Source: Verrucomicrobiales bacterium
Lineage (GTDB): Bacteria > Verrucomicrobiota > Verrucomicrobiia > Verrucomicrobiales > DEV007
Direction of reading: 5' to 3'
Length of the DNA: 37,345 nucleotides
Assembly: GCA_047620505.1 (NCBI GenBank)
Contig: JBLHKS010000051.1
Span: forward strand, 1 to 37,345
Made by a program: the position numbers and the translations under genes. Below, in pieces: positions 1,961-37,345 of this stretch; within the stretch, counting starts at the first letter, position 1; the number at the start of each line of letters is the position of its first letter. The notes under the pieces are model-generated. The model was given only the letters and a program-made list of their open reading frames with translations. It was not told the DNA's origin and searched no databases.

Positions 1961-1964
<4 letters not shown>
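777..1964 (-). CDS. Secreted hypothetical protein with an N-terminal signal peptide and no recognised domain.
   Basis: 395-aa ORF. The N-terminus [21 protein letters not shown] is signal-peptide-like. The start overlaps the stop of the upstream DUF1501 gene by 4 bp (1961..1964). Confidence 0.6.
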
Positions 1965-8247: not shown

Positions 8248-8361
8248 GAATCGCCCATTTCCAACATCCGCTTCACTTGAAAGCCCCTCCATGCCGCTCT
8301 CGTGTATCGCGGTGAACCGCCAACTCCGGTTCGGGCCCCATTTTTAACGATCTCTAGAGGA

Positions 8362-11300: not shown

Positions 11301-13503
11301 GTTTCTTGCGACGCGTTTCAACTGCAACAAATGCCACGATCACCCGTTTGAGCGCTGGAATGTCGGCCAGTACTATGAAACGGCCTCGTTCTTCACGCAG
11401 ATCGGCCTGGCGCGGGATGCGAAGAATGCGCCTACCCAAAATCTTGGCGGAAGTGCAGTTGAGAACGCGAAACCGCTTTACGAAGTGATCTCCGACACGA
11501 CTGAAGGCGCGATTACGAATGTCGTGACTGGTGAGGAAGCTAAGCCTGTATTTCCTTACCCATCGAAGCTCGCTCAAGTCGCGTTCACCAATCCGGAAGC
11601 GCCGACGCGCCGAGAGCAGTTCGGTGCTTGGCTTACGAGTGGGGACAATGATTACTTCGCGATGAGTTACGCGAATCGGATTTGGGGATATTTGTTGGGA
11701 ACCGGGATTATCGAGCCGATCGACGATATTCGTGCGGGCAACCCACCGACGAATCCGGAACTTCTTCAGTACCTGACATCCGAATTTGTCGGGAGCGATT
11801 TCAATTCGCAGCACTTAATGAGATTGATCTGTAAATCTCGCGCTTACCAGCTTTCGATCCAGACGAATCGGTGGAACGAGGACGACCAGATTAACTTCGC
11901 TCATGCGAAAGCCCGTCGTCTGCCGGCCGAAGTTTTGTTCGACGCCGTGTTCTCGGTGACCGGTTCGCAGTCCAAAATTCCGGGTGCCCCGGCTGGCGCG
12001 CGTGCGGCTTCGCTGGCGGATGCGAAGATCGATTTGAAGAGCGGATTTCTCGCCAACCTCGGCCGTCCGGCTCGCGAAAGCGCCTGCGAGTGCGAGCGGA
12101 GCAACGACGTCCAGATGGGCGCGATCATGGCGTTCGTATCAGGGCCGACGATTGCCGAGGCCGTTGGTCAGCCCGGAAACGCGATCGAAAAGCTCGTCGC
12201 TGCGCAGCCGGACGATGCAAAAGTCGTCGAGGAACTTTATTTGCGGACGTTGTCTCGATCGGCTAAGCCCGAAGAAATTCAAACTGCTCTCGGCGCTCGC
12301 GATGAAATCAGAGCTGATCACGAAAAGTTACTCAAAATTGTAGCGGAACGCGAAGCTTGGTGGGTGCCGGTGAAGGCCGAACGCGAGGAAGCCCGGGTCA
12401 AACGGATCGGAGCAGCTGCTGGCGAGATTCAAGCTTACGTTCCGGAGTATACGAAGAAGAAAAACGAGGCTGAGGCGGCCCAGAAAGCGCGAATCACCGC
12501 TGCTGACAAGGGGCTTAAAGATTATCAGGCGGGCTTGCCCAAGATCGTGGCTGACGGAACGGCTGGGATCCAGGTGAGCGATCTCTGGACTCAGTGGACA
12601 GGCCTGGTTCCTAAGACGGTCGTTTCATCGAACGCCGCGATCAAACTGGAGGCTCAGGAGGGCGGCGCGCTGCTCGTGACCAGCCCACACGTTAAGGCGA
12701 ACGTCGATTACACGCTGACTTTCGATATTCCGGCTAAGCAAACGGTGACCGGCTTCAAGATCGACGCGTTGCCGAACAACAGTCTGGCTGGATTTGGCCC
12801 TGGGGTGAACCCGAACGGGAATTTCGTCGTGACCGAAGTGGAAGTTCAGACGTCGACGGCGAAGGAGCCCAAGAAGCTTGTCAAAGCGAAGTTCGTCGAC
12901 GCAAAAACTGAGCACATCCAAGACGGATTCAACGTTAAGGGCCTCTTTAACGGCAATCCGAACAACGACAAGAGCTGGGCAATCGCCGGAAAAGAACGCC
13001 AGCCGCATGCGGCGCGTTTGAAGCTGGAGAAGCCGCTTGTTCTGGAACAGGGCGGTCAGCTCGTGATCAAAATCTACAACCGATATGGCGGCGGCGACTA
13101 CCCACTTGGGCACTTCCGAATTTCCGCGACGACTTCGGCAAGACCGCTTGAAATCGGCCTACCCACAGAAGTAGCTCAAGCAGCCGCGACTGCGCCCGAG
13201 GGCAGGACGGAAACGGTTAACGCAGTGCTCGCGGCTTACTTCAAAGCGAACGACTTGGAATTGCTCAAGCGCGATCAGCTGCTGGTGAAAGAGCAGCGAC
13301 CGCTGCCGCGCGATCCGAGGATGATCGAGCTTGAAGCCGGGTTGAAAGTCGCCGAAACGCCGATCAAGCAGGATCCACCGCTTTTGCAGCTTCGTCAGGA
13401 TGCCGAGTATTCGGTGAAGCAGCTCGAGAACAGCCGCCTGACAGCAGCGCAGGACCTTGCTTGGGCGCTGATCAATAATCCGTCGTTTTTGTTTAACCGT
13501 TAG
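8362..13503 (+). CDS. Giant secreted multidomain protein: PSCyt cytochrome-c-like domain, WD40 beta-propeller, Ig-like segment, DUF1549, DUF1553 and a C-terminal beta-rich domain.
   Basis: The ORF spans 8302..13503 in the track. The likely start is the ATG at 8362, preceded by GAGG, which gives the signal peptide MMNSTLRFRLAVPFLALSLTSTGFAADE. Motifs present: CQGCHQPAKAKGD (PSCyt); WD40 repeats (FSPDGKLLAVAG, FSPDGTKIAVTGG, WSPDGKLVAFG, YSPDGKMIAASGQDGLIRL); FIRRVYLDLTGLPPS (DUF1549); NCNKCHDHPFERW (DUF1553). Confidence 0.8.
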   Translation: MMNSTLRFRLAVPFLALSLTSTGFAADEKSDSSGPVSYYEQIRPIFQASCQGCHQPAKAKGDYVMTQFQQLLKGGKTGDAAITPGKAEESSVVLRVKPEAGEDIMPPKGEKLNESEIALIERWISEGAKDDTPQNAVARYSLENPPSYVQAPIITSMDFSPDGKLLAVAGFHEVILLKADGSGQVARLIGLSEQIDTVKFSPDGTKIAVTGGLPERMGELQVWDVAKRELDLSLPMGFDTIYGASWSPDGKLVAFGMPDNTMRAVNSETGEQVVFMGGHNDWVLDTEFNKAGTHIISVGRDMSTKLTEVATQRLVDNLTSITPEALKGGIGAVVIHPSQDHILIGGSDGAPQIYRTKRETVRKIGDNANLIRKYPQMRGRIWSVAFRPDGKQFVAGSSLNGQGEIAIYKSEYDPAIPADVKKAMETARSRPDSKKGKEQQLVDAWQTKGVEEPIRIPVEVAIYAVAYSPDGKMIAASGQDGLIRLINPADGKIAKNVTPVEITAEKIAVDKFGEKDKADEITWQTEPVLSGEITKLDVSPKKITISGPARYQQLLVTAHYASGEQLDVTRMVAFEVSGELVEISKRGLAKPKRDGTGKLTVALGAKKVEIAVEVAGLAEPLHPYWITDINPVISRMGCNAGTCHGAKDGKAGFKLSLRGYDPVYDVRAFTDDIQSRRVNYASPDDSLMLLKTTGAVPHEGGQLAPQHSTYYDLVRSWISDGGQLELAAPRVKSIEVFPKNPVIQKIGSRQQFRVVATLTNGEIRDVTREAFVESGNADVSTHDNQAMLATIRRGEAPILARYEGAYAATTLTVMGDRKGFEWSEQPANNRIDELVASKWQRMKIEPSGLCDDSEFIRRVYLDLTGLPPSVDVVRAFLADKSPMQKKRDGLVDSLIGTGEFVDHWANKWADLLQVNSKFLGGSGASEFRAWIHEEVKANTPYDEFVYKIITATGSNKDNPPASYYKILREPDAIMENTTHLFLATRFNCNKCHDHPFERWNVGQYYETASFFTQIGLARDAKNAPTQNLGGSAVENAKPLYEVISDTTEGAITNVVTGEEAKPVFPYPSKLAQVAFTNPEAPTRREQFGAWLTSGDNDYFAMSYANRIWGYLLGTGIIEPIDDIRAGNPPTNPELLQYLTSEFVGSDFNSQHLMRLICKSRAYQLSIQTNRWNEDDQINFAHAKARRLPAEVLFDAVFSVTGSQSKIPGAPAGARAASLADAKIDLKSGFLANLGRPARESACECERSNDVQMGAIMAFVSGPTIAEAVGQPGNAIEKLVAAQPDDAKVVEELYLRTLSRSAKPEEIQTALGARDEIRADHEKLLKIVAEREAWWVPVKAEREEARVKRIGAAAGEIQAYVPEYTKKKNEAEAAQKARITAADKGLKDYQAGLPKIVADGTAGIQVSDLWTQWTGLVPKTVVSSNAAIKLEAQEGGALLVTSPHVKANVDYTLTFDIPAKQTVTGFKIDALPNNSLAGFGPGVNPNGNFVVTEVEVQTSTAKEPKKLVKAKFVDAKTEHIQDGFNVKGLFNGNPNNDKSWAIAGKERQPHAARLKLEKPLVLEQGGQLVIKIYNRYGGGDYPLGHFRISATTSARPLEIGLPTEVAQAAATAPEGRTETVNAVLAAYFKANDLELLKRDQLLVKEQRPLPRDPRMIELEAGLKVAETPIKQDPPLLQLRQDAEYSVKQLENSRLTAAQDLAWALINNPSFLFNR
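8566..8577. repeat. Exact copy of the palindrome CAGCAGCTGCTG.
   Basis: Lies inside the 1733-aa gene (FQQLLKG). Confidence 0.9.
10015..10026. repeat. Exact copy of the palindrome CAGCAGCTGCTG.
   Basis: Lies inside the 1733-aa gene (YQQLLVT). Confidence 0.9.
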
Positions 13504-21809: not shown

Positions 21810-22796
21810 ATGAAACGAAACTCTCCTTTATTGATAACTGCGGCGCTTCTCAGCGTTAGCGCCCTGATGATGTCGAGCTGCATTCAGTTCGAAGAAAAAG
21901 TCATCCTCAACCCGGACAACTCTGGCAAAACTCGAGTCACTCTCATCATGCCGAACCCTGCGGAGATGATGGGAGCCATGATGGAAGGTCTGGCACCAGA
22001 CGGTGCTGCCGCTGCTGAAGGCATGCCCTCGATCGACGATATGGCGAAAGACATGGCCCAGGGGATCTTGGGTGGAGCCAAAGGCGTGGAAGCTTGGCGC
22101 AATGTCGAGTGGGGTGCGACTGAGGACGGGAAAATGCGGTTTCAGGGAGTTGCCTACTTTCGGGATTTCAATGAATTCGAGGCTTCCAGTGACGACGGCG
22201 GCGCAGGACCGGACCTCGGATCGCCGACTTCCACAATGCGGGACGGCAAGTGGGTGATCGCGATCGAAATGAAAGATGACGGCGAACCGGATGATCCTGC
22301 GGCGGCCCCTCAGATCCCTGCTGATCAGATCGACACAATTATTGCCCAGAGTCGTGCCCAATGGGAGCAGCAAAAGCCCGTCATGGGGCCGATGATTGGA
22401 TCGATGCGGATGGAATATCGATTGAAAGTCGGCGGGACAATCGAGTCGGTTTCTGCTTTCACTCAACACGAGCCGAATGTCGCGGGAATCGTGATGGACG
22501 GACAGAAAATGATCGGCGCGATGGACGGGCTGATCGGCGATGATGACGCGATGCGGAAGCTCATGACTGAAGGCAGTTTCGATGCTCAGGGAATGCCGGA
22601 GCCGCCGGACGATCAGATGATGGAGCTGGTTTTCGGATCGCCGGGACCGCTCGAAATTATTATCGAGCCAGGTGACCCGCTCTTCGATTATGAGGCCGAA
22701 GTCGCTGCGGCAAAAGCCTCGATGACGGACGAACTCAAGGGAATGATCGAGGCTGGACAGGCAGCAGCTGCTGCTGGAGATGGCGACCCGTTCTGA
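21810..22796 (+). CDS. Methionine-rich acidic lipoprotein. It may bind Cu(I) or another metal.
   Basis: 328 aa. It has a signal peptide with lipobox LMMSSC and clustered Met motifs (MMGAMMEG, MGPMIGSMRM, MIGAMDG, DDQMME). Confidence 0.55.
   Translation: MKRNSPLLITAALLSVSALMMSSCIQFEEKVILNPDNSGKTRVTLIMPNPAEMMGAMMEGLAPDGAAAAEGMPSIDDMAKDMAQGILGGAKGVEAWRNVEWGATEDGKMRFQGVAYFRDFNEFEASSDDGGAGPDLGSPTSTMRDGKWVIAIEMKDDGEPDDPAAAPQIPADQIDTIIAQSRAQWEQQKPVMGPMIGSMRMEYRLKVGGTIESVSAFTQHEPNVAGIVMDGQKMIGAMDGLIGDDDAMRKLMTEGSFDAQGMPEPPDDQMMELVFGSPGPLEIIIEPGDPLFDYEAEVAAAKASMTDELKGMIEAGQAAAAAGDGDPF
22762..22773. repeat. Exact copy of the palindrome CAGCAGCTGCTG.
   Basis: Lies inside the Met-rich lipoprotein gene (QAAAAAG). 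Confidence 0.9.
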
Positions 22797-22880
22797 TTTC
22801 GCTCTCTGAATTTTCCTTCAAGCCGTGCTCGAAATTTCGGGCGCGGCTTTCTTTTTGCCTGAACGCGTCGAAATTCGACC

Positions 22881-23684
22881 ATGCCCAACACATCTGAGAT
22901 CTCAAACATGGCGGTGTTCTGCGATTTCGAGAACATCGCTCTCGGCGTGAACGAGGTAGGGTTCTCCAAGTTTCAGATCGACAAAGTCCTCGAGCGATTG
23001 CTCGTGAAAGGCAACATCGTCGTCAAAAAGGCTTACTGCGATTGGTCAAGATACGAATCCTTCAAACGCTCGATGCACGAGGCCGCTTTCGAGCTAATCG
23101 ACATCCCGCACGTTCGGCAAAGCGGAAAAAACTCGGCCGATATCCGCATGGTTGTCGATGCACTCGACCTCTGCTACACCAAAGCTCATGTTGACGCCTT
23201 CGTTGTTGTCAGCGGCGATTCGGACTTCTCTCCGCTGGTCAGTAAACTTCGTGAGAACAACAAAGTCGTTATCGGAGTCGGCGTGAAACACTCCACCTCG
23301 GACCTGTTGGTTGCGAATTGCGACGAGTTCATTTTCTACGATGAATTGGTCGAGAAAAAGCCTCGTCGAGCCGCAAAGAAGGCTGGCAAACCGACCACGA
23401 AAAAGTCTGCCAGAACCAAATCAGCTGAAAACATCGACGACGACGGAATCGAGCTCGTCGTGTCGACGATCGACAGTCTGATCGATGAAATCGGCGGTCG
23501 GAGTTCGCTCTGGGGCTCGATGGTCAAGCAGGCGATCAAACGTCAGCGTCCCGGCTTCAACGAACGCGCTCACGGCTTCAAGTCCTTCAACGCGATGCTC
23601 GAAGTCGCGCGAGATCGCGGCCTGATCGCGCTTAGCCCAGACGAAAAATCTGGCGGCTACGTGATCGAAACGGCGGGTGATTGA
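22881..23684 (+). CDS. NYN-domain ribonuclease-like protein with a C-terminal OST-HTH/LOTUS domain.
   Basis: 267 aa. The NYN core is AVFCDFENI...KKAYCDW...NSADIRMVVDALDL...VVVSGDSDFSPLVSKLRENNKVVIGVG. The OST-HTH-like C-terminus is LVVSTIDSLIDEIGGRSSLWGSMVKQAIKRQRPGFNERAHGFKSFNAMLEVARDRGLIAL. The start may instead be the internal Met at 22908. Confidence 0.75.
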   Translation: MPNTSEISNMAVFCDFENIALGVNEVGFSKFQIDKVLERLLVKGNIVVKKAYCDWSRYESFKRSMHEAAFELIDIPHVRQSGKNSADIRMVVDALDLCYTKAHVDAFVVVSGDSDFSPLVSKLRENNKVVIGVGVKHSTSDLLVANCDEFIFYDELVEKKPRRAAKKAGKPTTKKSARTKSAENIDDDGIELVVSTIDSLIDEIGGRSSLWGSMVKQAIKRQRPGFNERAHGFKSFNAMLEVARDRGLIALSPDEKSGGYVIETAGD

Positions 23685-23689
23685 CCATC

Positions 23690-25150
23690 TCAGGTTCCGC
23701 AAAAAGTCGCCTCCACAATCTCGCCGGCGCTTGGAGCGGCCTCGAATTCGGCAAACTCGCTTTTCTCCGCAAACGGCTCCTTCAGGACTTCGTTCAGCCT
23801 GTGAAACAGCTCGAAATCTCCCTGGTTCCCGGTGCGGATCGCTTCCTCAATTTGATGATTGCGCGGAATGAACACCGGATTCGACCGCCGCATCAACGCA
23901 AGCGCCTCGTCTTGATCACTGCCCGCCATCCGCGCTCGCCATCGCTCCAACCAAGCAACAATCGCTTCCGGCTGATTGAACAGTTTGATCACTTCCGCGT
24001 CTTCAGAACTTCCGTGAGCGCTCGTTAGATGTCGAAAAACCAAAGTGAAATCGGCCTCGCCTTCAGCCATCGCTTTGAGCAGAGACTCCACGAGTTGCCA
24101 GTCGTCTTTTTCATCGCCCTTCAATCCGATCTTCGCCGTTAGTCGTTCTCGGAGCGCGCTTTGGTGCAGATCGGGAAACCGCTCAAGCTCGGCCTCTGCA
24201 ATTGCTACGGATCGATCCGGATTGTCGTCCAGCAACGGAAGCAGGGTCTCCGCAAGCCGCGTCAGGTTCCATTGAGCGATTGGTCCCTGATTCGCAAAAG
24301 CATAACGCCCATTCTGATCGATTGAGCTGAATTTTTTCGCAGGATCGTAGTCATCGAGGAAAGCACACGGCCCGAAGTCGATCGTCTCGCCTGAGACGTT
24401 CATGTTGTCCGTGTTCATCACTCCATGGATGAAACCGAACTGCATCCAGTGGGCAATCAGGTCGGCCTGACGACCAATCACGCCGCTTAGCAGAGCTTGG
24501 TAAGAGTTCTCGGCTTCCCTCGCGTCGGGAAAATGACGGTCGATCACGTAATCGGCGAGAATTCGGAGATTCTCTTTGTCATCCCGAGCTGCAAACCATT
24601 GAAAAGTCCCAATTCGAATGTGAGAACGCGCGACCCGGGTGAAAATTCCGCCAGGCTGCATTCCCTCACGCGCGACGTGCTCTCCGCTCGTCACAGCCGC
24701 CAGCGCCCGAGTCGTCGGAACCCCAAGAGCTGCCATCGCTTCAGAAACGATATACTCGCGCAAAACGGGCCCTAACGCGGATCTTCCGTCGCCTCTCCGT
24801 GAAAACGGAGTCGGCCCCGAGCCCTTCAACTGGATGTCATACCGGACGCCATCTTTTCCTATGACCTCGCCAAGCAGAATCGCCCGACCGTCTCCCAATT
24901 GGGGCGAGAAGCCGCCAAACTGATGTCCCGAGTAAGCCATCGCCAATGGATCAGAACCTTCGGGTGTCTGATTTCCTGAAAGCGCCGCGAGACCTTCCAG
25001 CGATTCCAGCTTCTCCGCGTCTAGTCCAAGCTCTGCGGCCAGCGAATGATTAACCCGAATGATTGTCGGATTCGTGACGGGAGTTGGTTGGACCGGAGCA
25101 TAAAAAGCCTCCGGAAGCCGAGCATAACTGTTATCGAATGGAAAGAGCAC
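23690..25150 (-). CDS. selO: Protein adenylyltransferase (AMPylase) SelO/YdiU, UPF0061 family.
   Basis: 486 aa with a GTG start. It has the N-terminal FDNSYARLPEAFY and the kinase-like core GHQFGGFSPQLGDGRAILLGE...QLKGSGPTPFSRRGDGRSALGPVLREYIVSEAM. Its start codon directly abuts the stop of the upstream giant gene (25150/25151). Confidence 0.9.
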   Translation of the reverse strand: MLFPFDNSYARLPEAFYAPVQPTPVTNPTIIRVNHSLAAELGLDAEKLESLEGLAALSGNQTPEGSDPLAMAYSGHQFGGFSPQLGDGRAILLGEVIGKDGVRYDIQLKGSGPTPFSRRGDGRSALGPVLREYIVSEAMAALGVPTTRALAAVTSGEHVAREGMQPGGIFTRVARSHIRIGTFQWFAARDDKENLRILADYVIDRHFPDAREAENSYQALLSGVIGRQADLIAHWMQFGFIHGVMNTDNMNVSGETIDFGPCAFLDDYDPAKKFSSIDQNGRYAFANQGPIAQWNLTRLAETLLPLLDDNPDRSVAIAEAELERFPDLHQSALRERLTAKIGLKGDEKDDWQLVESLLKAMAEGEADFTLVFRHLTSAHGSSEDAEVIKLFNQPEAIVAWLERWRARMAGSDQDEALALMRRSNPVFIPRNHQIEEAIRTGNQGDFELFHRLNEVLKEPFAEKSEFAEFEAAPSAGEIVEATFCGT

Positions 25151-28100
25151 TCAGTCTCCTTGCCTGACTTCGCCTTCGATATCCACTGGTAATTTATCCG
25201 CGCCCTTAGCTTTCTTAATCTTAATCTTCTTTTTCTTCGGCGCGCCAGCAGCTGCTGACTTCGATTTGGACGCTTCCTGAACGGGAACGACCTTGATTTC
25301 CACTTCCACTGGCACAGCGCGAAGTCCGGAAATCACCTTTTCCAGCTTTGCGACGGTCTCGTCTGTCAGCCCAGTCGATTGCAAGGATTCGCCGATCCGG
25401 CTCAAACCGTCGTTGAATTCGCTCAGCTGAGCTACCACGCGCGTTACCGGGTCGGACTCGTCGCCACCCGCCAGCAGTTGGTTTTTGTTGAATGCCTTGT
25501 GGATTTCCGCCCATCGAGTCGCCTCGGTGTCGGTCAAAATCCCTTCAAGCTCCTTGAATTTGAGTAGATTCGCTTCAGCGCCCGTAGTGAGCGTCTGACT
25601 CTCGTTTTCGTAGTGCGATACGATGAGATTCTCGACTTCCTCGTCCGTCATGATCGCCAATACTTTTTCAGCGATCCGGCTCATGTTACGATAACTGCCT
25701 TGTAGCTTGAACGAAGGCTCCGTTCGATACGCGTCTTCCATCGCGGCAGAGCGAATGTATTCCAGATTCACGCGTAGAATCGTATCGCGAACACGCATCA
25801 ATTTTTTGGTCACCGAAACAAGCTCGTCGATCTCTTCTACCGAATAGTTGCCTTCAAAATCCGCGCCTTCCTGTGATCCCGTCTCCGCGATCTTCATCAC
25901 CGCATAAATATCTTTTTGGCTTCGGCTTGAGAGCTTGCTCAGCACCGAATTACTGGTTAGCGAGTTCTCAATATAACTATCTTTGAACGAACCTTCGTTC
26001 TCTCCAATAATATCGCCAAGATTGTAGGTATCGGCGCGGTTGGCGAGCATATCAGGAATCTGGAATCGCCCGCCGCTCTCGGTATAAGGGTTGCCAGCCA
26101 TCACCACTGCGACTTTCTTCCCGCGCAGATCGTAAGTTCTGGCTTTGCCTTCCCAGACGCCCTCAATTTTGCGTTGAGCGTCGCAGAGCGAAATGAATTT
26201 CTGAAGAAACTCAGGATTGCAGTGCTGAATGTCGTCAACGTAGATCATTACGTTGTCGCCCATTTCTAAGGCGAAGTTCAACTTGTTGACTTCGGCGCGC
26301 GCGCTGGCGTTTGGCGCTTCTGTCGGGTCAAGCGAGGTGACTTGATGGCCAATCGCTGGCCCGTTGATTTTCACGAACGTGATCCCCAATCGGTTGGCCA
26401 CGTATTCCATCAGTGTGGTTTTGCCGTAGCCTGGCGGGGAAACGAGCAACAGCATGCCCATTCGATCGGTTCGCGTATCGGCTCCAGCGGTTCCGAGCTG
26501 TTTGGCCAGATTGTCGCCGATCATCGGAAGGTAAACTTCGTCGAGCAACCGGTTGCGCACGAAGGCGCTCATAACAGTTGGTTTAAACTCGTCCAACCTC
26601 ATTGACTCACGCGCCTCATCGATCAGGCGAGATTTCAATTCATGGTAGGCTTCAAAGCGAGGAACAACCTCCGATTCGAAATTACTCAAACGAGTCAGAA
26701 ATTCGTTGTAGTCCAACAAATATCCGCCTCCAGCAATTCGCGAATGATCGCCCAGTAAACCATCCAGCTCCGCGCGGGTCGCCGCATCGACGACTTCGCG
26801 TTGCTCGAATCCACCACGCATTTCGTGCGCCGCCGCCTCAACCACGACGTCTTCCGTGACGTCGCCACCAGCGCTTCCTCGCATCCAGTCGGAAGTCACC
26901 TGGAAACGCCCAGCCGCGTCGTCTTCGAGTTCGCTTACAGCCTCCTGAAATTTCGACTTTGACCGCGTTGAAGCGAGTTTCCCGTGAAACTCCTTCACCA
27001 CACGTGCAGCCTCTGCGGAAACGACCACGCCACCTTCTGACGAAAGCTCATCCACCAGATAATCGGCTGCTCCGGACTTATGGCGCGCGTCAAATAGCCC
27101 AGTCTGCTCAAGAAATACACCAAGATGCTCCGCCAACTCTTCTTCGTAATCAGCATCGAGGTTCCCGCCGGCGCCTCCAAAAGCATCGCGCATTTGGCCG
27201 AACGATTTCAGTTTGGCGGCAAGCCGCTGCTTTTCGGCTCCCTCAAACCATTCCCAAAACACGAGACCGCACGCCCGCGAGGTCATTGAATGCCTTAGAC
27301 GCCCGGCCCTTTGATGAATCGGGAGTAACGCACTCAAGAGTCGCTCGGTATCGTGGTCGTTGACTCCTTTGACGTAGCCCTCAGCGTAGCGAGATGACAT
27401 GAACTCTTGAATCATTTCGATCGAAACCGCCTCGCTATCAGCATAACGTTTTTCACTGAGCATCTGAAAGGCGAGATACTCAGACCGGTATACATTTTGA
27501 TTTTCGGAAATGATTTCCTGATCCCAAACGGAGCGAGTTTGTAGAAACTCTGGGTCAACGATCGTTTCATAAAAGGCAGTGCCTGCCAGATGAAACGCCA
27601 TTTCGCCGTCCCGCGGAATTACAGTGAGATCGAGTTCGCGTGTATTGACTGAGAACTGGTGATTTCCTAAGCGAATGACATCTTTGCCGCCGATGAACAG
27701 TTCCTTGCGATCTTTGAGCTGCCGCACCGCGTCCTCTCGCATCGTCTTCAGACGCGTCTGGACATCGCCCGATTTGACGGTGTCGCCCAACTCCGTGAGA
27801 TTTTCGACAATGTCACGAACCTTGTCGACCATCAGGTCGCTGGCAAAGTAGCTGTTGATCTCGGCGATCTCTTCAAACCCGGACACGCGCCGCACAATAC
27901 CGCCTAAAATCCGGTCGGCGGACTTTAGCAAAGTGTCGGCTCGCTTGTTTCGAGACTCCAGCAGCTGCTGCTTGCGGCTTTCGAACGCGCCGTAAATTTC
28001 TTCCCGTTTTTCGCCGAGCTGAGCGACGTAATCATCAAACTCGCTGAATTTACCTTCCAGCTCTTCGATCTGCACCATTAGGCGCGTAAGCTGTTCGTCG

Positions 28101-30229
28101 CACTTTTCTGGCGTATCGCAAACATCTAAGGTGTTGACCACTGTTTGAGCGATCAACTTCATCTGCGCCCCGAATTGGCCTTCCGCTTCGACTCGTCCGA
28201 GCTCCTGCCGGCGCTTGCGAACCTGCGCTTGAACCTGGTTCAAACTCGCATAAATGCCCGAGATCGCCTCAGTGATCTTCGTCGCTTCCGTCGCGTCTGT
28301 GATCTGGAGATTCCCGACGATATCGATCAGCATCTCCAATTCGCCGCCAGCCTCGGCCAAAGCGTCCGAAACTGCGGTGGCTTCAGTAACTTTGGTGAGT
28401 TTTGCCGCCGCATCCCTTTGCTCGGTGATCTTCGCTTGATAAGGATCGAGCGCCTCGGGCTTCAGGAGGAAACTAACGCAACTCTGGGACGTCTTTTCTG
28501 TCGCCTCAGAAATTTCTGCTTCTAGTTTATCAACTAAGTCGTTATCAATATAGCGGAGGTCCCGCAACGAAATTACCTCGCCGCGCGCCCCTCGCAGATC
28601 CGCCAAGTGATGAACAAATCCGAGAATGTCATCCGGAGCTTGGTGATCCGCGGCTGACGTTGCCTTGCGGGCTCGATCGTGTGCGCGTTTGGTTTCCTCC
28701 TTTGTCGTCTTGCGAATCCGTTGAACCTTATCGAATTCCCCAATCGCAGCCTGGGCAGCCTGGTTGACCGCCATCAACGGCGTTTTCAGCTCGGCGGTCT
28801 CGGAGTTGCCAACCCAGAAATAGCTATCGACGATATCCCCGGTTTTCTTGACCAGATCGACATAGAGATCGGCGTAAGTATCGTCCTTGCCGATCAGATT
28901 GAGAACCTCATGGCACTCCGCCATGCCGCGCACAATATCGGCGTTGCCTATTTTAAAGAGATAGCTGTCGGTCTGCGCTGGCTCGCTGGCACCTTCCGTC
29001 GTAAACGGAGTTTGCCAGACCTGAATCACGTGATGTTTCTGCGGCTGATCCTCCGTGCGAAAATAGAACAGCTCACCATCCGGGAAAACGCAATAGCCGT
29101 TGCAGATGATCGGCGTATCCAGCGTTTGCGCGATCAAGTTGTAGGCCATCAACGTGTAGGTCCCACTGGCGCGGTTGTAGAAAACGTACAACGTGTCCTC
29201 GCCGTTCGATGAAGCAATTCGACGCTCGAATCGCATGTCGGTTAGCCCGCTGTCGAAAACCTTTGTCTCGCCGGTTTGAAGGAGATAGCCATTGGAAACC
29301 ACGATCCCGTGATCGTCCGGAAGCAGAACACACGAATCCGCTATCGTATCGATTCGAGTAACCTTCTTCGTCTTCTCGTTAAAAGCGAGATATCGGAATT
29401 CCTGCTCTTGATAAGGCCGAACTTTGATCAATATCAAGCTGCCAACAATCGTGTAGAGAATTTCGGCATCGTCCAGGGTCTGATCGACATTGTCGACAGG
29501 CTCGGCATAGATCCCTTCGCCCGTTTCCGTGTTGTCTTCGATCTTTACAGTTAAATCGCCTCCGACAGTCTCGATGAAAACGCGGTCCTCGATCGAAATG
29601 TGCGGATGATCGCCACCGCGCTGCATGTCGCGGTGTGCACGCTTCCATTCGAACTCGTGCTGTGGCGGAAACTTGTATTCGTGATCGAAGCGATTGCCCA
29701 GATACTCAAGACGACCATCGCCAGGCATCAGGAATTTGAACGCCTTAATGTCTTCAACAGAGGCACCGGTGCGGAAAGCCACGTAAAGATGGACGCCCAG
29801 GACCATGAACTTCACGAAAATCGTTTCGCGATAGTATTTGTAGAGATAGGCAAACTCCTCTGCAAATCTCTCCTCGCCTTCAATCTCCCAAGTCGTCGGA
29901 ACAAAAGTGTGTCCGGCGTTTTCGTAATGATACGCCGAAAATACATCGGCAAGGTCGGTTGTAGCCTTGAGCCCAAGTTGAACGTTATACCCGAAGAGGA
30001 ATTTTCCGCCGCCGATCGACACCATGTCGCGCGGCGTGCAGTTGTGGGCGGTCGTTACCCGCTCGGTCGCGACGAGGCTGCTTTCGATCGCGCCGAAAAC
30101 CGCCTGCCGATCCCGGTTGAGCGTCCCAAGACGCTCGCGCAAGTCGGAGGCGTGGGTGTTGAGCCGATTGCGGATTACCTCGTAGGCTCCGCCTTCCAGC
30201 TTTGCGCCAGCTGTTGATTCGTCAGGCAA
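25151..30229 (-). CDS. Giant (1692 aa) multidomain protein with a single MoxR/dynein-type AAA+ ATPase module. It has an N-terminal beta-rich domain and a long central coiled-coil/helical region.
   Basis: Walker A is LLLVSPPGYGKTTLMEYVANRLG. Walker B is NVMIYVDDIQHC. The sensor-1-like element is VAVVMAGNPYT (the A-x-N-P pattern of the MoxR/McrB/dynein clade). The N-terminal ~430 aa have no recognised motif. There are long E/K/Q-rich helical stretches, and the tail is lysine-rich (KKKKIKIKKAK). No second P-loop is present. Confidence 0.8.
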   Translation of the reverse strand: MPDESTAGAKLEGGAYEVIRNRLNTHASDLRERLGTLNRDRQAVFGAIESSLVATERVTTAHNCTPRDMVSIGGGKFLFGYNVQLGLKATTDLADVFSAYHYENAGHTFVPTTWEIEGEERFAEEFAYLYKYYRETIFVKFMVLGVHLYVAFRTGASVEDIKAFKFLMPGDGRLEYLGNRFDHEYKFPPQHEFEWKRAHRDMQRGGDHPHISIEDRVFIETVGGDLTVKIEDNTETGEGIYAEPVDNVDQTLDDAEILYTIVGSLILIKVRPYQEQEFRYLAFNEKTKKVTRIDTIADSCVLLPDDHGIVVSNGYLLQTGETKVFDSGLTDMRFERRIASSNGEDTLYVFYNRASGTYTLMAYNLIAQTLDTPIICNGYCVFPDGELFYFRTEDQPQKHHVIQVWQTPFTTEGASEPAQTDSYLFKIGNADIVRGMAECHEVLNLIGKDDTYADLYVDLVKKTGDIVDSYFWVGNSETAELKTPLMAVNQAAQAAIGEFDKVQRIRKTTKEETKRAHDRARKATSAADHQAPDDILGFVHHLADLRGARGEVISLRDLRYIDNDLVDKLEAEISEATEKTSQSCVSFLLKPEALDPYQAKITEQRDAAAKLTKVTEATAVSDALAEAGGELEMLIDIVGNLQITDATEATKITEAISGIYASLNQVQAQVRKRRQELGRVEAEGQFGAQMKLIAQTVVNTLDVCDTPEKCDEQLTRLMVQIEELEGKFSEFDDYVAQLGEKREEIYGAFESRKQQLLESRNKRADTLLKSADRILGGIVRRVSGFEEIAEINSYFASDLMVDKVRDIVENLTELGDTVKSGDVQTRLKTMREDAVRQLKDRKELFIGGKDVIRLGNHQFSVNTRELDLTVIPRDGEMAFHLAGTAFYETIVDPEFLQTRSVWDQEIISENQNVYRSEYLAFQMLSEKRYADSEAVSIEMIQEFMSSRYAEGYVKGVNDHDTERLLSALLPIHQRAGRLRHSMTSRACGLVFWEWFEGAEKQRLAAKLKSFGQMRDAFGGAGGNLDADYEEELAEHLGVFLEQTGLFDARHKSGAADYLVDELSSEGGVVVSAEAARVVKEFHGKLASTRSKSKFQEAVSELEDDAAGRFQVTSDWMRGSAGGDVTEDVVVEAAAHEMRGGFEQREVVDAATRAELDGLLGDHSRIAGGGYLLDYNEFLTRLSNFESEVVPRFEAYHELKSRLIDEARESMRLDEFKPTVMSAFVRNRLLDEVYLPMIGDNLAKQLGTAGADTRTDRMGMLLLVSPPGYGKTTLMEYVANRLGITFVKINGPAIGHQVTSLDPTEAPNASARAEVNKLNFALEMGDNVMIYVDDIQHCNPEFLQKFISLCDAQRKIEGVWEGKARTYDLRGKKVAVVMAGNPYTESGGRFQIPDMLANRADTYNLGDIIGENEGSFKDSYIENSLTSNSVLSKLSSRSQKDIYAVMKIAETGSQEGADFEGNYSVEEIDELVSVTKKLMRVRDTILRVNLEYIRSAAMEDAYRTEPSFKLQGSYRNMSRIAEKVLAIMTDEEVENLIVSHYENESQTLTTGAEANLLKFKELEGILTDTEATRWAEIHKAFNKNQLLAGGDESDPVTRVVAQLSEFNDGLSRIGESLQSTGLTDETVAKLEKVISGLRAVPVEVEIKVVPVQEASKSKSAAAGAPKKKKIKIKKAKGADKLPVDIEGEVRQGD
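25246..25257. repeat. Exact copy of the palindrome CAGCAGCTGCTG.
   Basis: Lies in the C-terminal tail of the giant AAA+ gene (SAAAGA on the minus strand). Confidence 0.9.
27959..27970. repeat. Exact copy of the palindrome CAGCAGCTGCTG.
   Basis: Lies inside the giant AAA+ gene (KQQLLES). Confidence 0.9.
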
Positions 30230-30231
30230 AT

Positions 30232-32301
30232 TCAGAGGACCTTGTTAGCCTTTTGGTCGGCGACGCCGAGGCGCTGAGCAGCACCCAGAAGTCCGTTCAG
30301 CGTGCGACCGGTTGTCGAGTCGTTGTTGGCAGCCAGCATTTTGCCAAGAACCGCAGCCACGGTCAGATTCTTTAAGTCCTCACTGCTGATTCCGAACATA
30401 TCGACCCATTCCCGGATCTGCGCCTTGAATGCGTCCGGATCGCCGCGGAATAACGTATCTTTGATCTCGGTTAGGGTATCCGAATTGTCGAGCGCGCGGT
30501 CAACTTGCTTGCCAGCCGTTATGGCTTGAGTAATCTTGTCGAAGAACGTGCTTTCGCCGCCCACGATATCGATGTTTGCGGTTTTGAGGGCTGCCGCAAC
30601 CACGGTAGCTTGTTCGGCTGCGATATCCTTTTGAGCTTCGATCTCAGCGAGGTCGATCTGGCGTTCCTTGTCGAGCTTGAGCTTGAATTCTTCGTGGCCT
30701 TGACCGGCCTCTTCGAATAGCTTCATGGCGCCGGCCTTCTCGGTGATTCCGTCGGCATCAGCAGTTGCTTTGGCTCGAATTCCCTCCGCCTCCGCTCTTG
30801 CTTGTGCCTCTGTTCCTTCAGCGTTTGCGTTTGCTTTAGCGCGGATGACTTGAGATTCACCTAGCCCAGCAGCTGCTGTCTCGGCAGTGACACCCTCGGC
30901 GAGCATTTTCTTCGCTGCCGACTCTTTCTCGGCTGATTCCTGGTTCGCTTCAGCCGTGATCACGATCTCCTGCGCATGAAGCTCGGCCGATTGCTTGCTG
31001 GCCTCAGCCGCTTTCACATGCTCATAGGCTTCTTCGTCTGCCTTCAACTGTGCAGATTCCTTTTGTGCTTCAGCGTCGCGAACTTTGACCAACATCGCCT
31101 CCTGCGCCGTCTTCTCAGCCAGGGTAATCGCGACTTGCTTCTCTCGATCCGCGCCCGCGAAGGCCTCGGTATCTTTGATCTTCTCTTGCTCGATCACGAC
31201 CATCTTTTCGACCGCGACGCGCTCTTTGATCACGTCCTGAATGTTTTTCTTCTCGATTTCGACGGCTTTCTCCTTTTCGATGGACTTGAGAGTCGTTACC
31301 CGCTCACGATCGATCTCCTCCAATTTCCGATCCCTCTCAACACGCTCAAGTTCGACCCCATCGGTTCGTTCTTTGTTCCGCAGCGCGACAATCACCTGGC
31401 GCTCTTTGTTTTGTTCAGCGATCTGAATTTCCTCATCAGCTGCGATCCGAGCTTGCTCGGCTCGTTGACGGTTTTCCTCTTGGACCTTCTTCGTCTCGGC
31501 CTGCTCTCGCGCCTGAACTGAATCGACTTCCCGCTGTTGCTTCGCTTCGGTTTCTGCCAGCTGGCGTTCTAACTCTAGAATCGCTTCACGAGCTTCAACG
31601 TCCTGCTGTTTGATGACTTTTTCCTTATCTCGCTGAATGTGGTTAGCGAGTTTGGCTTGCGTTGCCGTTCTCTCTGTAATCTTCTTGATGCCTTCCGAAT
31701 CGAGGATGTTGTTCGGGTCTAAGGAATCCAGCGGAGTCTGCTCAAGGTCGTCAATCGCGGCGTCCTCCAGCGAGAAACCATTCAAGTCAGTTCCGATCAG
31801 TTTGATGATTTCATCGCGGAAACTGTCGCGCTCTTCGTAGAGTTCGGTGAAATCGAAGCGCTTTCCGATTGTCTTCAAGGCTTCCGAGAATTTGGCTCCG
31901 AAAAGCGCCTCAAGTTCCTTTTGATCCGAGGCGCGAACGCAGCCAATCGATTGCGCTACTTTTTTGACGTCGGCGTCCGTTGGATTGACCCTGACAAAGA
32001 AGGCGACTTTGATATCTGCCCTCATATTGTCTTTGCAGATCAGGCCGTTATCGCCTGCTCGGTCGATCTCGATTCGTTTTACCGAGATATTGATCATTTC
32101 GGCCTGATGGAATACGGGAATGACGACTTTTCCGGTAAATGACACCTGTGTTCCGCCCTGGCCGGTGCGCACCAGCGCGAGTCCTTGCGGGACTTTGCGA
32201 TAGCACTTTACGACCAGCACAAACAATCCTACGACCAAGATTAGGAATACGACGACAATGACGACGCCGATGCCGCCTAGCATTTCAATTAGTTCACTCA
32301 T
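30232..32301 (-). CDS. Flotillin-family SPFH/band-7 protein (YqiK/FloT-like) with an extended coiled-coil C-terminus.
   Basis: 689 aa. It has an N-terminal TM helix (VVIVVVFLILVVGLFVLVV), an SPFH core (VRTGQGGTQVSFTGKVVIPVFHQAEMINISVKRIEI...DIKVAFFVRV) and a long Glu/Ala/Lys-rich coiled-coil flotillin tail. It overlaps the upstream NfeD-like gene by 8 bp and ends 2 bp before the giant AAA+ gene. Confidence 0.85.
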   Translation of the reverse strand: MSELIEMLGGIGVVIVVVFLILVVGLFVLVVKCYRKVPQGLALVRTGQGGTQVSFTGKVVIPVFHQAEMINISVKRIEIDRAGDNGLICKDNMRADIKVAFFVRVNPTDADVKKVAQSIGCVRASDQKELEALFGAKFSEALKTIGKRFDFTELYEERDSFRDEIIKLIGTDLNGFSLEDAAIDDLEQTPLDSLDPNNILDSEGIKKITERTATQAKLANHIQRDKEKVIKQQDVEAREAILELERQLAETEAKQQREVDSVQAREQAETKKVQEENRQRAEQARIAADEEIQIAEQNKERQVIVALRNKERTDGVELERVERDRKLEEIDRERVTTLKSIEKEKAVEIEKKNIQDVIKERVAVEKMVVIEQEKIKDTEAFAGADREKQVAITLAEKTAQEAMLVKVRDAEAQKESAQLKADEEAYEHVKAAEASKQSAELHAQEIVITAEANQESAEKESAAKKMLAEGVTAETAAAGLGESQVIRAKANANAEGTEAQARAEAEGIRAKATADADGITEKAGAMKLFEEAGQGHEEFKLKLDKERQIDLAEIEAQKDIAAEQATVVAAALKTANIDIVGGESTFFDKITQAITAGKQVDRALDNSDTLTEIKDTLFRGDPDAFKAQIREWVDMFGISSEDLKNLTVAAVLGKMLAANNDSTTGRTLNGLLGAAQRLGVADQKANKVL
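30867..30878. repeat. Exact copy of the palindrome CAGCAGCTGCTG.
   Basis: Lies inside the flotillin gene (TAAAGLG). Confidence 0.9.
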
Positions 32302-32998
32302 TCGGTTCGATCTGGTTCGGTTGGTTTATTTGGATAAGTTTTTCCACTGCCGCGGATTTACGAACGGAAAAAAAGCCGGTTTCAGGATCTTCAGAAACCA
32401 CTAGGGCCTCATCGCCCTTGATCAATGACTCTTGATCTTCGGTTGCCCTGACATTGATCAGAAAGGTGGCACCGTCGCGTTCGACCTCTGCTTGCCCGCT
32501 GTCCGGGGTCACTTTCAATGACCGAATGGTGCAGGCACGACCCACGATTGGCTCATGGGTATCTCCATCTGCGTTCAAAGCCACGAAGAGACGCTTCAGA
32601 GGAGCGGTAGTGATTTTTGTGAGGATCGCGCTGATAAACAGGTTTGCGGTGAAGATCGCTGCAGTGATGAGAATCAGGCCACCGCCATTAAATATATAAT
32701 TCCCAAGGATCGAAATGGACCAAAGGCAGAGTACAAGGACGCTAATAACTATAAGCGCGGGAACCTGGCCAAAATTCAAGAATCGAAGGACGGCCATTCC
32801 GATACCGCCTCCGCCGGTTCCGGCGGTATCAAGGTCTGGATCCACATCGGCGTCGACGTCCGCATCAACATCGAAATCGAGACTGTCGACGCCGATCGCT
32901 CCCAAGATAACGATCAACCAGTAAACAACTACGGCCCCGAGAAGAATCGTAAGGGGTAGGTTCTGGCTTTTCAGGGCTTCTGTCAGGATCAAAGTCAT
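32294..32998 (-). CDS. NfeD/YqiJ-like membrane protein, the usual flotillin operon partner.
   Basis: 234 aa. It has N-terminal TM helices and an acidic DVDADVDADVDPDLD repeat. A central hydrophobic block is followed by a C-terminal soluble beta-rich domain (IVGRACTIRSLKVTPDSGQAEVERDGATFLINVRA), consistent with an NfeD OB-fold. Gene order matches yqiJ-yqiK / nfeD-floT operons. Confidence 0.6.
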   Translation of the reverse strand: MTLILTEALKSQNLPLTILLGAVVVYWLIVILGAIGVDSLDFDVDADVDADVDPDLDTAGTGGGGIGMAVLRFLNFGQVPALIVISVLVLCLWSISILGNYIFNGGGLILITAAIFTANLFISAILTKITTAPLKRLFVALNADGDTHEPIVGRACTIRSLKVTPDSGQAEVERDGATFLINVRATEDQESLIKGDEALVVSEDPETGFFSVRKSAAVEKLIQINQPNQIEPNE

Positions 32999-33066
32999 GT
33001 CTGTGGCGGCGTGACTTTAGAAGAAATGGGTGGAGAACCGGATTACAATTGCTAGACGAGTTTGTA

Positions 33067-35646
<2,580 letters not shown>

Positions 35647-37345
35647 ATGAAAACCCTGCTTGTTTCGATCCTCCTCGGCCTTTCGGCCATCGCGCTTCAT
35701 GCGCAAGACGCCCCGCCGCTCAAAGATCTGAACGGATTCTTTCCGTTCGAGGTTCCAGAAACTCTCGAGGCCTGGGAGGAGCGCGCGGCCGATCTTCGCC
35801 AACGCGTGCTCGTCGCCAATGGTCTCTGGCCGATGCCGGAGAAAACTCCGCTGAACCCGGTCATCCACGGCAAATTTGAGCGCCCGGGCTTTACGGTCGA
35901 GAAGGTCTACTTTGAGAGCTATCCCGGATTGTTCGTCACTGGCCTGCTTTTTCGACCTGAGAATCCGCCGGAGGGAAAACTGCCCGCTGTGTTGAGTCCG
36001 CACGGTCACGGCGGTCGACTTCAGGACCACGGCGTGGAGGGCGTCCTCAAGCAGATTGAGGGCGGTGGCGAGAAATTCAAGGAGTCAGGCCGGATGCCGA
36101 AAGTCGCTCGCTGCGCGACGTTGGCGCGGCTGGGTTGCGTTGTTTTTCTCTACGACATGTTTGGTTATGCCGATAGCAATCAACTTTCACGCGGGCTTGC
36201 TCACGGATTCAAGAAACAGCGGCCAGATTTCGAGGGGAAGGACAGCTGGGGGTTGTTCAGCGCGCAGGCGGAAATGCGGATGCAGTCGATCTTCGGTCTG
36301 CAAACCTGGAACTCGATCCGTGGTCTGGATTTTCTCGAAAGCCTGCCTGACGTAGACCCAAAACGCATCGCGGTGACCGGCGGAAGCGGCGGAGGAACGC
36401 AGACGATCATGTTGTGCGCGATCGACTCGCGGCCGATCGCGGGTTTCCCAAACGGGATGGTTTCCAGCGCGATGCAAGGCGGTTGCACCTGTGAAAACGC
36501 GAGTCTTCTGCGGATTGGAACTGGCAACGTGGAACTCGCCGCGCTGTTCGCACCTAAGCCGCAAGGGATGACCGCGGCTAACGACTGGACCAAAGAAATG
36601 CTCGTGCCCGGGAAAGGTTTTCCGGAATTGCAGAAGCTCTACGGGATGTACGGAAAAGTGGACAACGTGATCTGTGAAGACCTGCTTCATTTTGGGCATA
36701 ACTACAATTATGTGAGTCGCGCGGTCATGTATTCGTGGTTCAACAAGCATCTCGACCTCGGTCTTGAGGAGCCGATTGTTGAGGAGGATTTCAAGCTGCT
36801 GACGGCGGAAGAGCACGCTGTCTGGACTGTCGAGCATCCTGAGCCAGAAGGCGGCGATGAATTCGAGCGGAATCTAACGAATTGGATCGCGGATCAGGAC
36901 CAGCAGCTGCTGGACGCGATGACGGAAGGCGAGCGGCGCGAGACGGTTCGTGCGGCGTGGCGGACGATGATCGGTGCGAGCGATTTGAGCGGCGCAGTTG
37001 CGAGTTCGTTCTCTGCCGTGGGTTCGCCAGAAAAAACTACCCTTCAAACTGATCCGAAGTCCCCGTCTTTCTCGGTTTTTACGGCGAAACCAAAGGGGGA
37101 TTTCAAATTCACTGTTGTCTGGACGCACGAAAAGGGGAAGGACGGCTTATTCAAAGGGGACGGAACTCCAACTCCGGCCGTCCAGGGAATTCTCGACCGT
37201 GGAGGCCGAGTGATCACGGCGAATCTCCATCTTCAAGGGGACGAAATCAACGAAACGCCAGTCGTGGCCAACCCACGCGAATCTGCGAGCTACACGCACG
37301 CCTACAACGACTCGGTTTTCGCCGAACGAGTCCAGAATATTCTCG
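35647..37345 (+). CDS. Secreted alpha/beta-hydrolase (esterase/peptidase-like). The N-terminal ~566 aa are present and the gene runs off the window end.
   Basis: Manual translation from the ATG at 35647 gives MKTLLVSILLGLSAIALHAQDAPP (signal peptide)…RIAVTGGSGGGTQTIM (G-x-S-x-G nucleophile elbow)…HFGHNYNY. There is no stop codon before position 37345. Confidence 0.6.
   Translation, partial: MKTLLVSILLGLSAIALHAQDAPPLKDLNGFFPFEVPETLEAWEERAADLRQRVLVANGLWPMPEKTPLNPVIHGKFERPGFTVEKVYFESYPGLFVTGLLFRPENPPEGKLPAVLSPHGHGGRLQDHGVEGVLKQIEGGGEKFKESGRMPKVARCATLARLGCVVFLYDMFGYADSNQLSRGLAHGFKKQRPDFEGKDSWGLFSAQAEMRMQSIFGLQTWNSIRGLDFLESLPDVDPKRIAVTGGSGGGTQTIMLCAIDSRPIAGFPNGMVSSAMQGGCTCENASLLRIGTGNVELAALFAPKPQGMTAANDWTKEMLVPGKGFPELQKLYGMYGKVDNVICEDLLHFGHNYNYVSRAVMYSWFNKHLDLGLEEPIVEEDFKLLTAEEHAVWTVEHPEPEGGDEFERNLTNWIADQDQQLLDAMTEGERRETVRAAWRTMIGASDLSGAVASSFSAVGSPEKTTLQTDPKSPSFSVFTAKPKGDFKFTVVWTHEKGKDGLFKGDGTPTPAVQGILDRGGRVITANLHLQGDEINETPVVANPRESASYTHAYNDSVFAERVQNIL
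36902..36913. repeat. Exact copy of the palindrome CAGCAGCTGCTG.
   Basis: Lies inside the alpha/beta-hydrolase gene (DQQLLDA). Confidence 0.9.

Follow-up and report, generated by a model that had tools for sequence, protein, structure and literature searches.

Translationally coupled operon junctions, those of the Escherichia coli trp operon among them, are known as places where termination and reinitiation take place at stop and start codons that abut or overlap. HflK/C-FtsH, for its part, is an SPFH scaffold with an AAA+ partner. Operons of the SPFH2/NfeD2 type are typified by yqiJ-yqiK in E. coli and yuaF-floT in Bacillus subtilis (Hinderhofer et al., 2009, PMC2636767), and the survey of SelO gene neighbourhoods stresses transport, two-component and redox genes (PMC10364804). 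What, then, should be made of a selO gene that closes a flotillin operon? Such a gene is found in contig JBLHKS010000051.1 (assembly GCA_047620505.1) of a Verrucomicrobiales bacterium, of which we analysed a stretch of 37,345 nucleotides (nt), hereafter called the window: selO starts immediately after the stop codon of a gene for a giant AAA+ protein, itself preceded by flotillin-like and NfeD-like genes. It is a lineage-specific addition to a widespread, uncharacterised NfeD-flotillin-AAA+ operon, attached through an ordinary operon junction, and judging from the sequence it is probably co-transcribed with this module and translationally coupled to it.

The junction and the two genes that form it consist of the following features:

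25151..30229, minus strand: gene of the giant protein, 1692 amino acids (aa), with DUF3686, DUF7902, a coiled-coil region and AAA+; TTG start 2 nt after the flotillin stop
23690..25150, minus strand: selO/ydiU, 486 aa, last gene of the unit
25148..25153, minus strand: stop/start abutment TGA-GTG, with 0 intergenic bases
25156..25161, minus strand: Shine-Dalgarno-like motif AAGGAG, provided by the conserved Q-G-D codons of the giant gene (CAA GGA GAC), 5 nt before the selO GTG
25143..25180, minus strand: 38-nt junction block ATCGAAGGCGAAGTCAGGCAAGGAGACTGAGTGCTCTT, identical in the relative L082; holds the Shine-Dalgarno-like motif, the stop and the start

The TGA at 25153..25151 ends the open reading frame (ORF) of the giant protein, the GTG at 25150..25148 begins that of selO, and the minus strand reads GAA GTC AGG CAA GGA GAC TGA GTG CTC TTT CCA TTC GAT AAC across the two. 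This abutment had been the starting point of the original prediction, and its coordinates were confirmed along with the identities given to the genes (SelO, AAA+ and flotillin). Because no base lies between TGA and GTG, both ORFs are in the same frame. Close packing is by itself common in the window, where other same-strand neighbours are spaced at -4, -1, +3 and +14 nt.

Comparison with homologues indicates that the GTG is the true selO start. Every one of 11 stand-alone close SelO homologues begins, with ATG, at the residue aligned to it (M-x-x-x-F-D-N-S-Y-A-R-L-P), and the SelO family profiles align from residue 4-5. A better-supported start farther downstream, which would have undone the junction as first described, was not found: the next in-frame TTG/ATG lies about 68-70 codons into the gene and was rejected, since its use would cut conserved sequence. 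GTG is the start in both abutting lineages, namely the window and the relative recovered as L082/L083, and ATG in all the stand-alone homologues examined. On the other side of the junction, the giant gene stops at the family-typical C-terminus, for which the consensus is ...EVxQGD with an invariant Q1690, the window protein ending in ...EVRQGD. A Shine-Dalgarno-like motif precedes just two of the 23 window genes, selO and the gene at 777..1964. The strong AAGGAG ahead of selO is conspicuous within the window, though it is made of conserved coding triplets.

Homologues of the giant protein place the window in Verrucomicrobiales, and one relative shares the junction. This relative is represented by separate assemblies from two samples (L082 and L083), its giant protein and its SelO being 77% and 76% identical to those of the window. 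The gene order is that of the window (ligA, NfeD-like, flotillin, giant, selO and a convergent NYN gene), with a GC content of 0.559 in both, and the junction CAAGGAGACTGAGTG is identical in the window and in L082/L083. How unusual is this identity? Over the 9.3-kilobase (kb) alignment running from the NfeD-like start to the selO stop, the window and L082 are 72% identical at the nucleotide level, and the longest identical run, of 38 nt, is the one located at the junction (25180..25143). The next identical runs measure 27 and 22 nt and fall in the SelO motifs DGRSALGPV and VMNTDNM, while further upstream of the 38-nt block identity is 0.55-0.78. Counted in codons, the 12 identical ones at the junction (IEGEVRQGD-stop-VL) form the longest such run in 2189 codons, in a pair of sequences whose codons are identical at just 46% of the positions conserved as amino acids. 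In permutations, a run of this length at any position had P = 0.006, or 0.012 when conditioned on the amino-acid identity pattern. As a control we used L081, a relative with no selO after the giant gene and a giant protein slightly closer to that of the window (79% identical): its tail differs at 8 of 27 nt. Because the same tail diverges in L081, the synonymous constraint at the junction is specific to the attachment of selO, and the junction appears, from this comparison, to be under selection beyond coding needs.

The presumed unit is tightly packed, its four genes (NfeD-like, flotillin, giant and selO) being spaced at -8, +2 and 0 nt on the minus strand. Upstream of selO and the giant gene it comprises:

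33042..33066, minus strand: TACAAA...ATTGTAAT, a promoter-like motif that follows the ligA stop directly; the NfeD-like ATG comes about 44 nt later
32294..32998, minus strand: gene that opens the module, for a 234-aa membrane protein resembling NfeD/YqiJ (its YqiJ_N score of 20 bits falls short of the cutoff, 23)
30232..32301, minus strand: flotillin-like SPFH protein, 689 aa, with an N-terminal transmembrane segment and Band_7, then a long coiled coil

In five Verrucomicrobiales relatives, two of which have a gene other than ligA upstream, the core of the promoter-like motif, [T/G]TACAAA...ATT[A/G]TAAT, can be aligned ahead of the NfeD-like gene. The conserved type is TTACAAA...ATTATAAT, with a hexamer spacing of about 13-15 nt, and it is the likely start of the predicted transcription unit. 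A consensus scan of the giant/selO junction revealed neither a promoter-like nor a terminator-like site, counts being equal to shuffle expectation; for promoters the consensus was of the E. coli type, which has low power in Verrucomicrobiota. RNA folding at the junction was no better than that of shuffled sequences (z 0.36-0.40, in the window and L082), and no match to known RNA families in Rfam was obtained in 22500..37345.

We favour a four-gene transcription unit, made of the NfeD-like gene, the flotillin gene, the DUF3686/AAA+ giant and selO, in which selO would be the terminal and translationally coupled cistron. The first three genes form a module that is old and widespread and whose usual last member is the giant gene; selO would have come to sit directly after the giant stop in the common ancestor of the window genome and one sister lineage. 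Translation of selO would start in one of two ways: ribosomes that terminate at the UGA of the giant ORF would re-initiate at the GUG next to it, or new 30S subunits would bind the AAGGAG given by the last codons of the giant gene, 5 nt ahead of the GUG. By either route the making of SelO would require expression of the module and scale with it. The arrangement would in this way set selO expression, by co-induction with a membrane-associated stress module, and would not mark an enzyme and its substrate. Selection having apparently kept the junction, the lineage can be argued to depend on this route for its SelO expression. That the flotillin and AAA+ genes are regulated together with selO, as was originally proposed, is very probable in view of the -8/+2/0 packing, the embedded Shine-Dalgarno-like motif, the lack of a detected promoter or terminator at the junction and the identical junction in the relative.

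Several points weigh against this coupled unit. Co-transcription and coupling are inferred from sequence alone. The conservation statistic comes from a single pairwise comparison between two lineages, and the block is partly constrained by its amino acids, that is by the family ...EVxQGD tail and by the SelO N-terminus. Most window genes have no Shine-Dalgarno motif, so that the ribosomes of this host may make no use of one; a strong one could also serve independent initiation instead of re-initiation, and, the promoter scan being weak, an internal promoter may have been missed within the 3' portion of the giant gene.

These last two points can be assembled into a rival account, in which selO relies on a promoter located within the giant gene, at its 3' end, and on a Shine-Dalgarno motif of its own, the zero spacing being mere compaction after a rearrangement. 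A strong and well-spaced motif would indeed permit de novo initiation, the promoter scan is insensitive in Verrucomicrobiota, and in every other lineage examined selO stands alone with an ATG and an upstream region of its own. Set against this, no promoter-like site was detected within several hundred bases upstream of the GTG, the nearest on the minus strand being at 27828..27800; the conserved block is limited to 38 nt at the Shine-Dalgarno motif, stop and start, and takes in no upstream stretch large enough for a promoter; and the change from ATG to GTG is confined to the two abutting lineages. We consider independent expression of selO unlikely.

If selO is coupled to the module as we propose, is SelO also a partner of its proteins? 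The original prediction had raised the possibility that SelO modifies, or is regulated by, components of the upstream module, and the distribution of the link among genomes bears directly on this point. Two large scans were made, one for the giant protein, whose alignment was scanned against species-representative genomes, and one for SelO in metagenomic loci, each yielding 80 loci, which are the best 80 of at least 600 matches listed. Among the other Verrucomicrobiales relatives, what follows the giant gene is diverse:

L081 (giant protein 79% identical): a pyrroloquinoline quinone (PQQ) beta-propeller gene after the giant gene
L084 (72%): 227 bp past the giant gene, none of it SelO sequence, which excludes an abutting selO, not one farther on
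L165 (70%): 321 bp past the giant gene, none of it SelO sequence, which excludes an abutting selO, not one farther on
L171 (63%): unrelated convergent genes after the giant gene
L172 (63%): unrelated convergent genes after the giant gene
L173 (64%): a same-strand glyoxalase-family gene, then a convergent gene

No selO was found downstream of the giant gene in any of these six relatives (63-79% identical, with the short flanks of L084 and L165). Since each large scan kept the best 80 of at least 600 matches, the clade with this junction may extend somewhat beyond the window and L082/L083. In the genomes of seven phyla covered by the best 80 giant loci (Verrucomicrobiota, Planctomycetota, Bacteroidota, Desulfobacterota, Kiritimatiellota, Omnitrophota and Firmicutes), the gene immediately before the giant one is flotillin in 60 of the 63 loci informative on this point, and 46 loci have an NfeD-like homologue upstream of flotillin. 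As for selO, it was absent downstream of the giant gene in all 68 loci of this set that were informative there, i.e., with at least 1.5 kb after the giant gene. Nor was a recurrent fourth gene found after the giant gene in the other phyla: the largest cluster counts 3 loci, and the genes are heterogeneous and often convergent. Because the downstream genes vary and no family occurs in more than 3 loci, the conserved module ends at the giant gene.

Seen from the other side, none of the best 80 metagenomic selO loci (55-79% identical) has a giant, flotillin, NfeD, ligA or NYN gene near selO; the closest of them show unrelated upstream genes, mostly divergent, and in four further close SelO contigs selO stands alone. 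In about 45,000 SelO neighbourhoods, Band_7 was recorded in 98 and Flotillin in 8, i.e., in well under 1% (PMC10364804). Searching 5.8 billion proteins with a chimeric query made of the last 250 residues of the giant protein and the first 250 of SelO returned, among the scored candidates, no fusion covering both halves; longer SelO entries, considered as possible fusions, turned out to carry unrelated over-called N-terminal extensions. In the literature searched, no link between bacterial SelO and flotillin was found.

Three side observations belong to this survey. The sole selO match in the 80 module loci is a locus-edge fragment in Hymenobacter metallilatus (L041, 7..561, minus strand), located on the opposite strand, with about 9.4 kb between it and the giant gene downstream, and it seems to be there by chance. 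Three loci (L166-L168, from runs SRR21700128/133/168) hold a stand-alone selO, 75% identical, between guanylate-cyclase/AAA_16 and M50 peptidase genes. They come from the same run series as L081 (SRR21700129), and their selO may be that of the L081 organism at another locus. Finally, a small Phage_CP76-like gene lies divergently upstream of the NfeD-like gene in L084 (6616..7119), L171 (1312..1794) and L173 (1113..1598). Because a same-strand ligA replaces this gene and selO is added in the lineage of the window and L082, both flanks of the module have been remodelled there.

The link between selO and the module is a recent and narrow event, compatible with a lineage-specific functional tie without being evidence for one. 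A functional partnership would have SelO act on the flotillin/NfeD/AAA+ machinery or be controlled by it; SelO might, for instance, AMPylate or UMPylate the giant ATPase, flotillin or client proteins. The idea draws on the apparent selection of the junction beyond coding needs, on the persistence of the arrangement while the operon diverged to 72% nucleotide identity, and on the description of SelO/YdiU as an enzyme tied to stress that modifies redox proteins, chaperones and other targets (PMC10364804, PMC9239255, PMC13355359); in the literature searched, SPFH proteins are tied to membrane stress. These arguments have to be set against the lack of co-occurrence outside one narrow clade in the scans described above (0/68, 0/80 and 0/6), the lack of a fusion in the chimeric search and the scarcity of Band_7 and Flotillin in surveyed SelO neighbourhoods, and selection on the junction is equally well explained by selection on the expression level of selO. 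We regard a partnership as improbable, and find the original suggestion of modification or regulation unsupported. Unrelated contexts of selO in close relatives had been named beforehand as an observation that would refute the original prediction, and this is largely what was observed, in the six relatives, the 80 selO loci and the four contigs.

A stronger version, in which SelO has been recruited in this Verrucomicrobiales clade as a working part of the NfeD-flotillin-AAA+ membrane module, nucleotidylating for instance the giant ATPase, flotillin or their clients under envelope or oxidative stress, is likewise doubtful. Were it true, the conserved coupling junction would fix the stoichiometry of SelO with the module, the uncharacterised DUF3686 AAA+ family would gain its first physiological context, and bacterial SelO a membrane-linked set of targets. 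A functional lineage-specific link would more generally provide a testable lead to SelO substrates outside Enterobacteria. The lesson of the locus is also one of caution: a perfect stop/start abutment, even a selected one, speaks for probable co-expression in one lineage and does not show a functional partnership, and broad synteny argues against a general link between SelO and flotillin.

Might the in-frame UGA instead be read through or decoded (as tryptophan, selenocysteine or glycine), to give a 2179-aa fusion of the giant protein and SelO? The shared frame means that any read-through would produce the fusion, and the nucleotides around the stop are conserved. TGA, however, is the stop of 15 of the 23 window genes, and the genome is for that reason not recoded; moreover, the giant protein stops at its family-typical ...QGD end, SelO homologues begin at the corresponding residue as free N-termini, no fused homologue came out of the chimeric search, and no significant hairpin follows the UGA. 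Recoding is very improbable. An artefact, the junction being created by mis-assembly or by a mis-called start in what is a metagenome-assembled contig, is effectively refuted by the same junction in separate assemblies from two other samples of a diverged organism and by the exact match of both gene ends to their families.

Coming back to the coupled cistron itself, SelO is, by its sequence, an ordinary member of the SelO/YdiU family, unusual only in its context and its GTG start. Pfam PF02696 matches residues 5-455 of 486 at 391 bits (cutoff 22.8), and with the NCBIfam model of the YdiU family the score is 562 bits, the cutoff being 431; species-specific equivalog models stay under their cutoffs, which is what a distant phylum would be expected to give. 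The match to Pseudomonas syringae SelO (PDB 6EAC) reaches 337 bits, with full-length structure matches at 334-338 bits. The protein ends in ...EATFCGT, and the same FCGT tail is present in homologues. The C-terminal cysteine of this bacterial tail is equivalent to the selenocysteine of eukaryotic SelO. The motifs IQLKGSG, HGVMNTDN and IDFGP (DFG) are all intact and aligned with 6EAC, following the published definitions of the ATP-binding lysine (xxLK), the HGVMNTDN catalytic loop and the metal-binding DFG (PMC12599244), and the product is predicted to be a protein AMP/UMP-transferase. As for its origin, the GC content of selO and that of its third codon positions (GC3) are unremarkable, so that composition gives no signal of horizontal transfer. 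Among the SelO homologues nearest to that of the window, at 70-76% identity, many carry a Planctomycetota label (Fuerstiella, Pirellulaceae, Rhodopirellula), and the giant protein is about 51-55% identical to planctomycete homologues. A Planctomycetota-like SelO may reflect horizontal acquisition of selO or simply a stronger conservation of SelO.

The other proteins of the unit are less easily recognised. The stop of the NfeD-like gene overlaps the flotillin start by 8 nt (ATGAGTGA). In the flotillin-like protein, Band_7 scores 49.6 bits at residues 36-186 when the N-terminal 230 aa are scanned alone, while the full-length protein gives no Pfam match even at E <= 1; the coiled-coil, low-complexity tail apparently makes the HMMER filters drop the protein, a pitfall for annotation. 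No solved structure matches it by sequence. The giant protein scores 605 bits with DUF3686 and 32 bits with AAA (PF00004, cutoff 21.2), DUF7902 being present as well. Its Walker A is SPPGYGKTT and its Walker B IYVDDIQH (residues 1331-1338; 26216..26239, minus strand), with DD in place of the usual DE and no glutamate; D1332, D1333, I1334, Q1335 and H1336 are invariant in 21 homologues. Against solved structures, the giant protein shows matches at the level of Walker A alone (Cdc48/p97 and RuvB). An AlphaFold2 model of its residues 1-480 (28790..30229, minus strand) is of low confidence, with a mean predicted local distance difference test (pLDDT) of 57 and a predicted template modelling score (pTM) of 0.36. 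In this model of the DUF3686 region, about 30 beta strands come after a long N-terminal helix, perhaps a sign of a propeller-like repeat. A PADLOC scan for defence systems gave a weak coiled-coil LmuB match on the giant protein and a generic NYN match, and nothing else.

The unit is bordered by two neighbours:

33067..35382, minus strand: ligA, NAD-dependent DNA ligase, same-strand upstream neighbour, separated from the module by a 68-nt gap
22881..23684, plus strand: convergent NYN-domain gene, which marks the end of the unit; 5 nt separate its stop from that of selO, and the gene is also present in L082

Transcription of ligA may read through into the module; among the loci examined, ligA is upstream of the module in the window and L082/L083 only. 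At 23682..23692 the stops of selO (minus strand) and of the NYN gene (plus strand) converge with a 5-nt gap and no terminator-like hairpin, so that the two transcripts must overlap or end in each other's coding sequence; in L082 the corresponding gap measures 42 nt. Farther away, a 1733-aa protein encoded at 8302..13503 (plus strand) combines PSCyt1/PSCyt2/PSD1 planctomycete cytochrome-type domains with WD40 repeats, which fits the placement of the window in the Planctomycetota-Verrucomicrobiota-Chlamydiota group.

How does the locus compare with the systems described so far? With coupled junctions it shares the essential layout: genes on the same strand, a stop and a start within a few bases of each other, a Shine-Dalgarno motif in the end of the upstream ORF, tolerance of a non-ATG start and no intergenic regulatory space. 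Unlike the junctions built on an ATGA or TGATG overlap, that of the window is a TGA|GTG abutment whose Shine-Dalgarno motif comes from family-conserved Q-G-D codons, and its coupling is predicted from sequence. The selO junction adds a fresh example to a familiar class of features, operons extended by a coupled terminal cistron. With the known SelO/YdiU proteins (P. syringae 6EAC; E. coli and Salmonella YdiU, 6K20 and 6III) the window SelO shares the same motifs and a full-length match. The studied members and the other close homologues are stand-alone genes with an ATG start, whereas selO here has a GTG start and closes a flotillin operon.

The module offers comparisons of its own. As in HflK/C-FtsH, a gene of the SPFH family is genetically paired with that of a predicted AAA+ ATPase; unlike FtsH, the giant protein has no protease-domain match in the Pfam scan and carries a Walker B with DD, not DE, and the pairing is known here from the genes alone. 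The common annotation of the giant family as a 'DNA repair ATPase' is without visible basis, and DUF3686 is not mentioned in the literature searched. As in yqiJ-yqiK and yuaF-floT, an NfeD-like gene lies immediately upstream of, and overlaps, an SPFH gene encoding a long coiled coil. Unlike these operons, the locus has a conserved third gene, for a DUF3686/DUF7902/AAA+ protein of 1650-1800 aa that is not in the earlier account (PMC2636767), and in this lineage selO comes fourth. From the comparison of loci, the NfeD-like protein, the SPFH flotillin and the 1650-1800-aa DUF3686-DUF7902-AAA+ protein form an apparently unstudied three-gene module kept in at least seven phyla, a by-product of the analysis that is more durable, and more interesting, than the selO junction from which it started.

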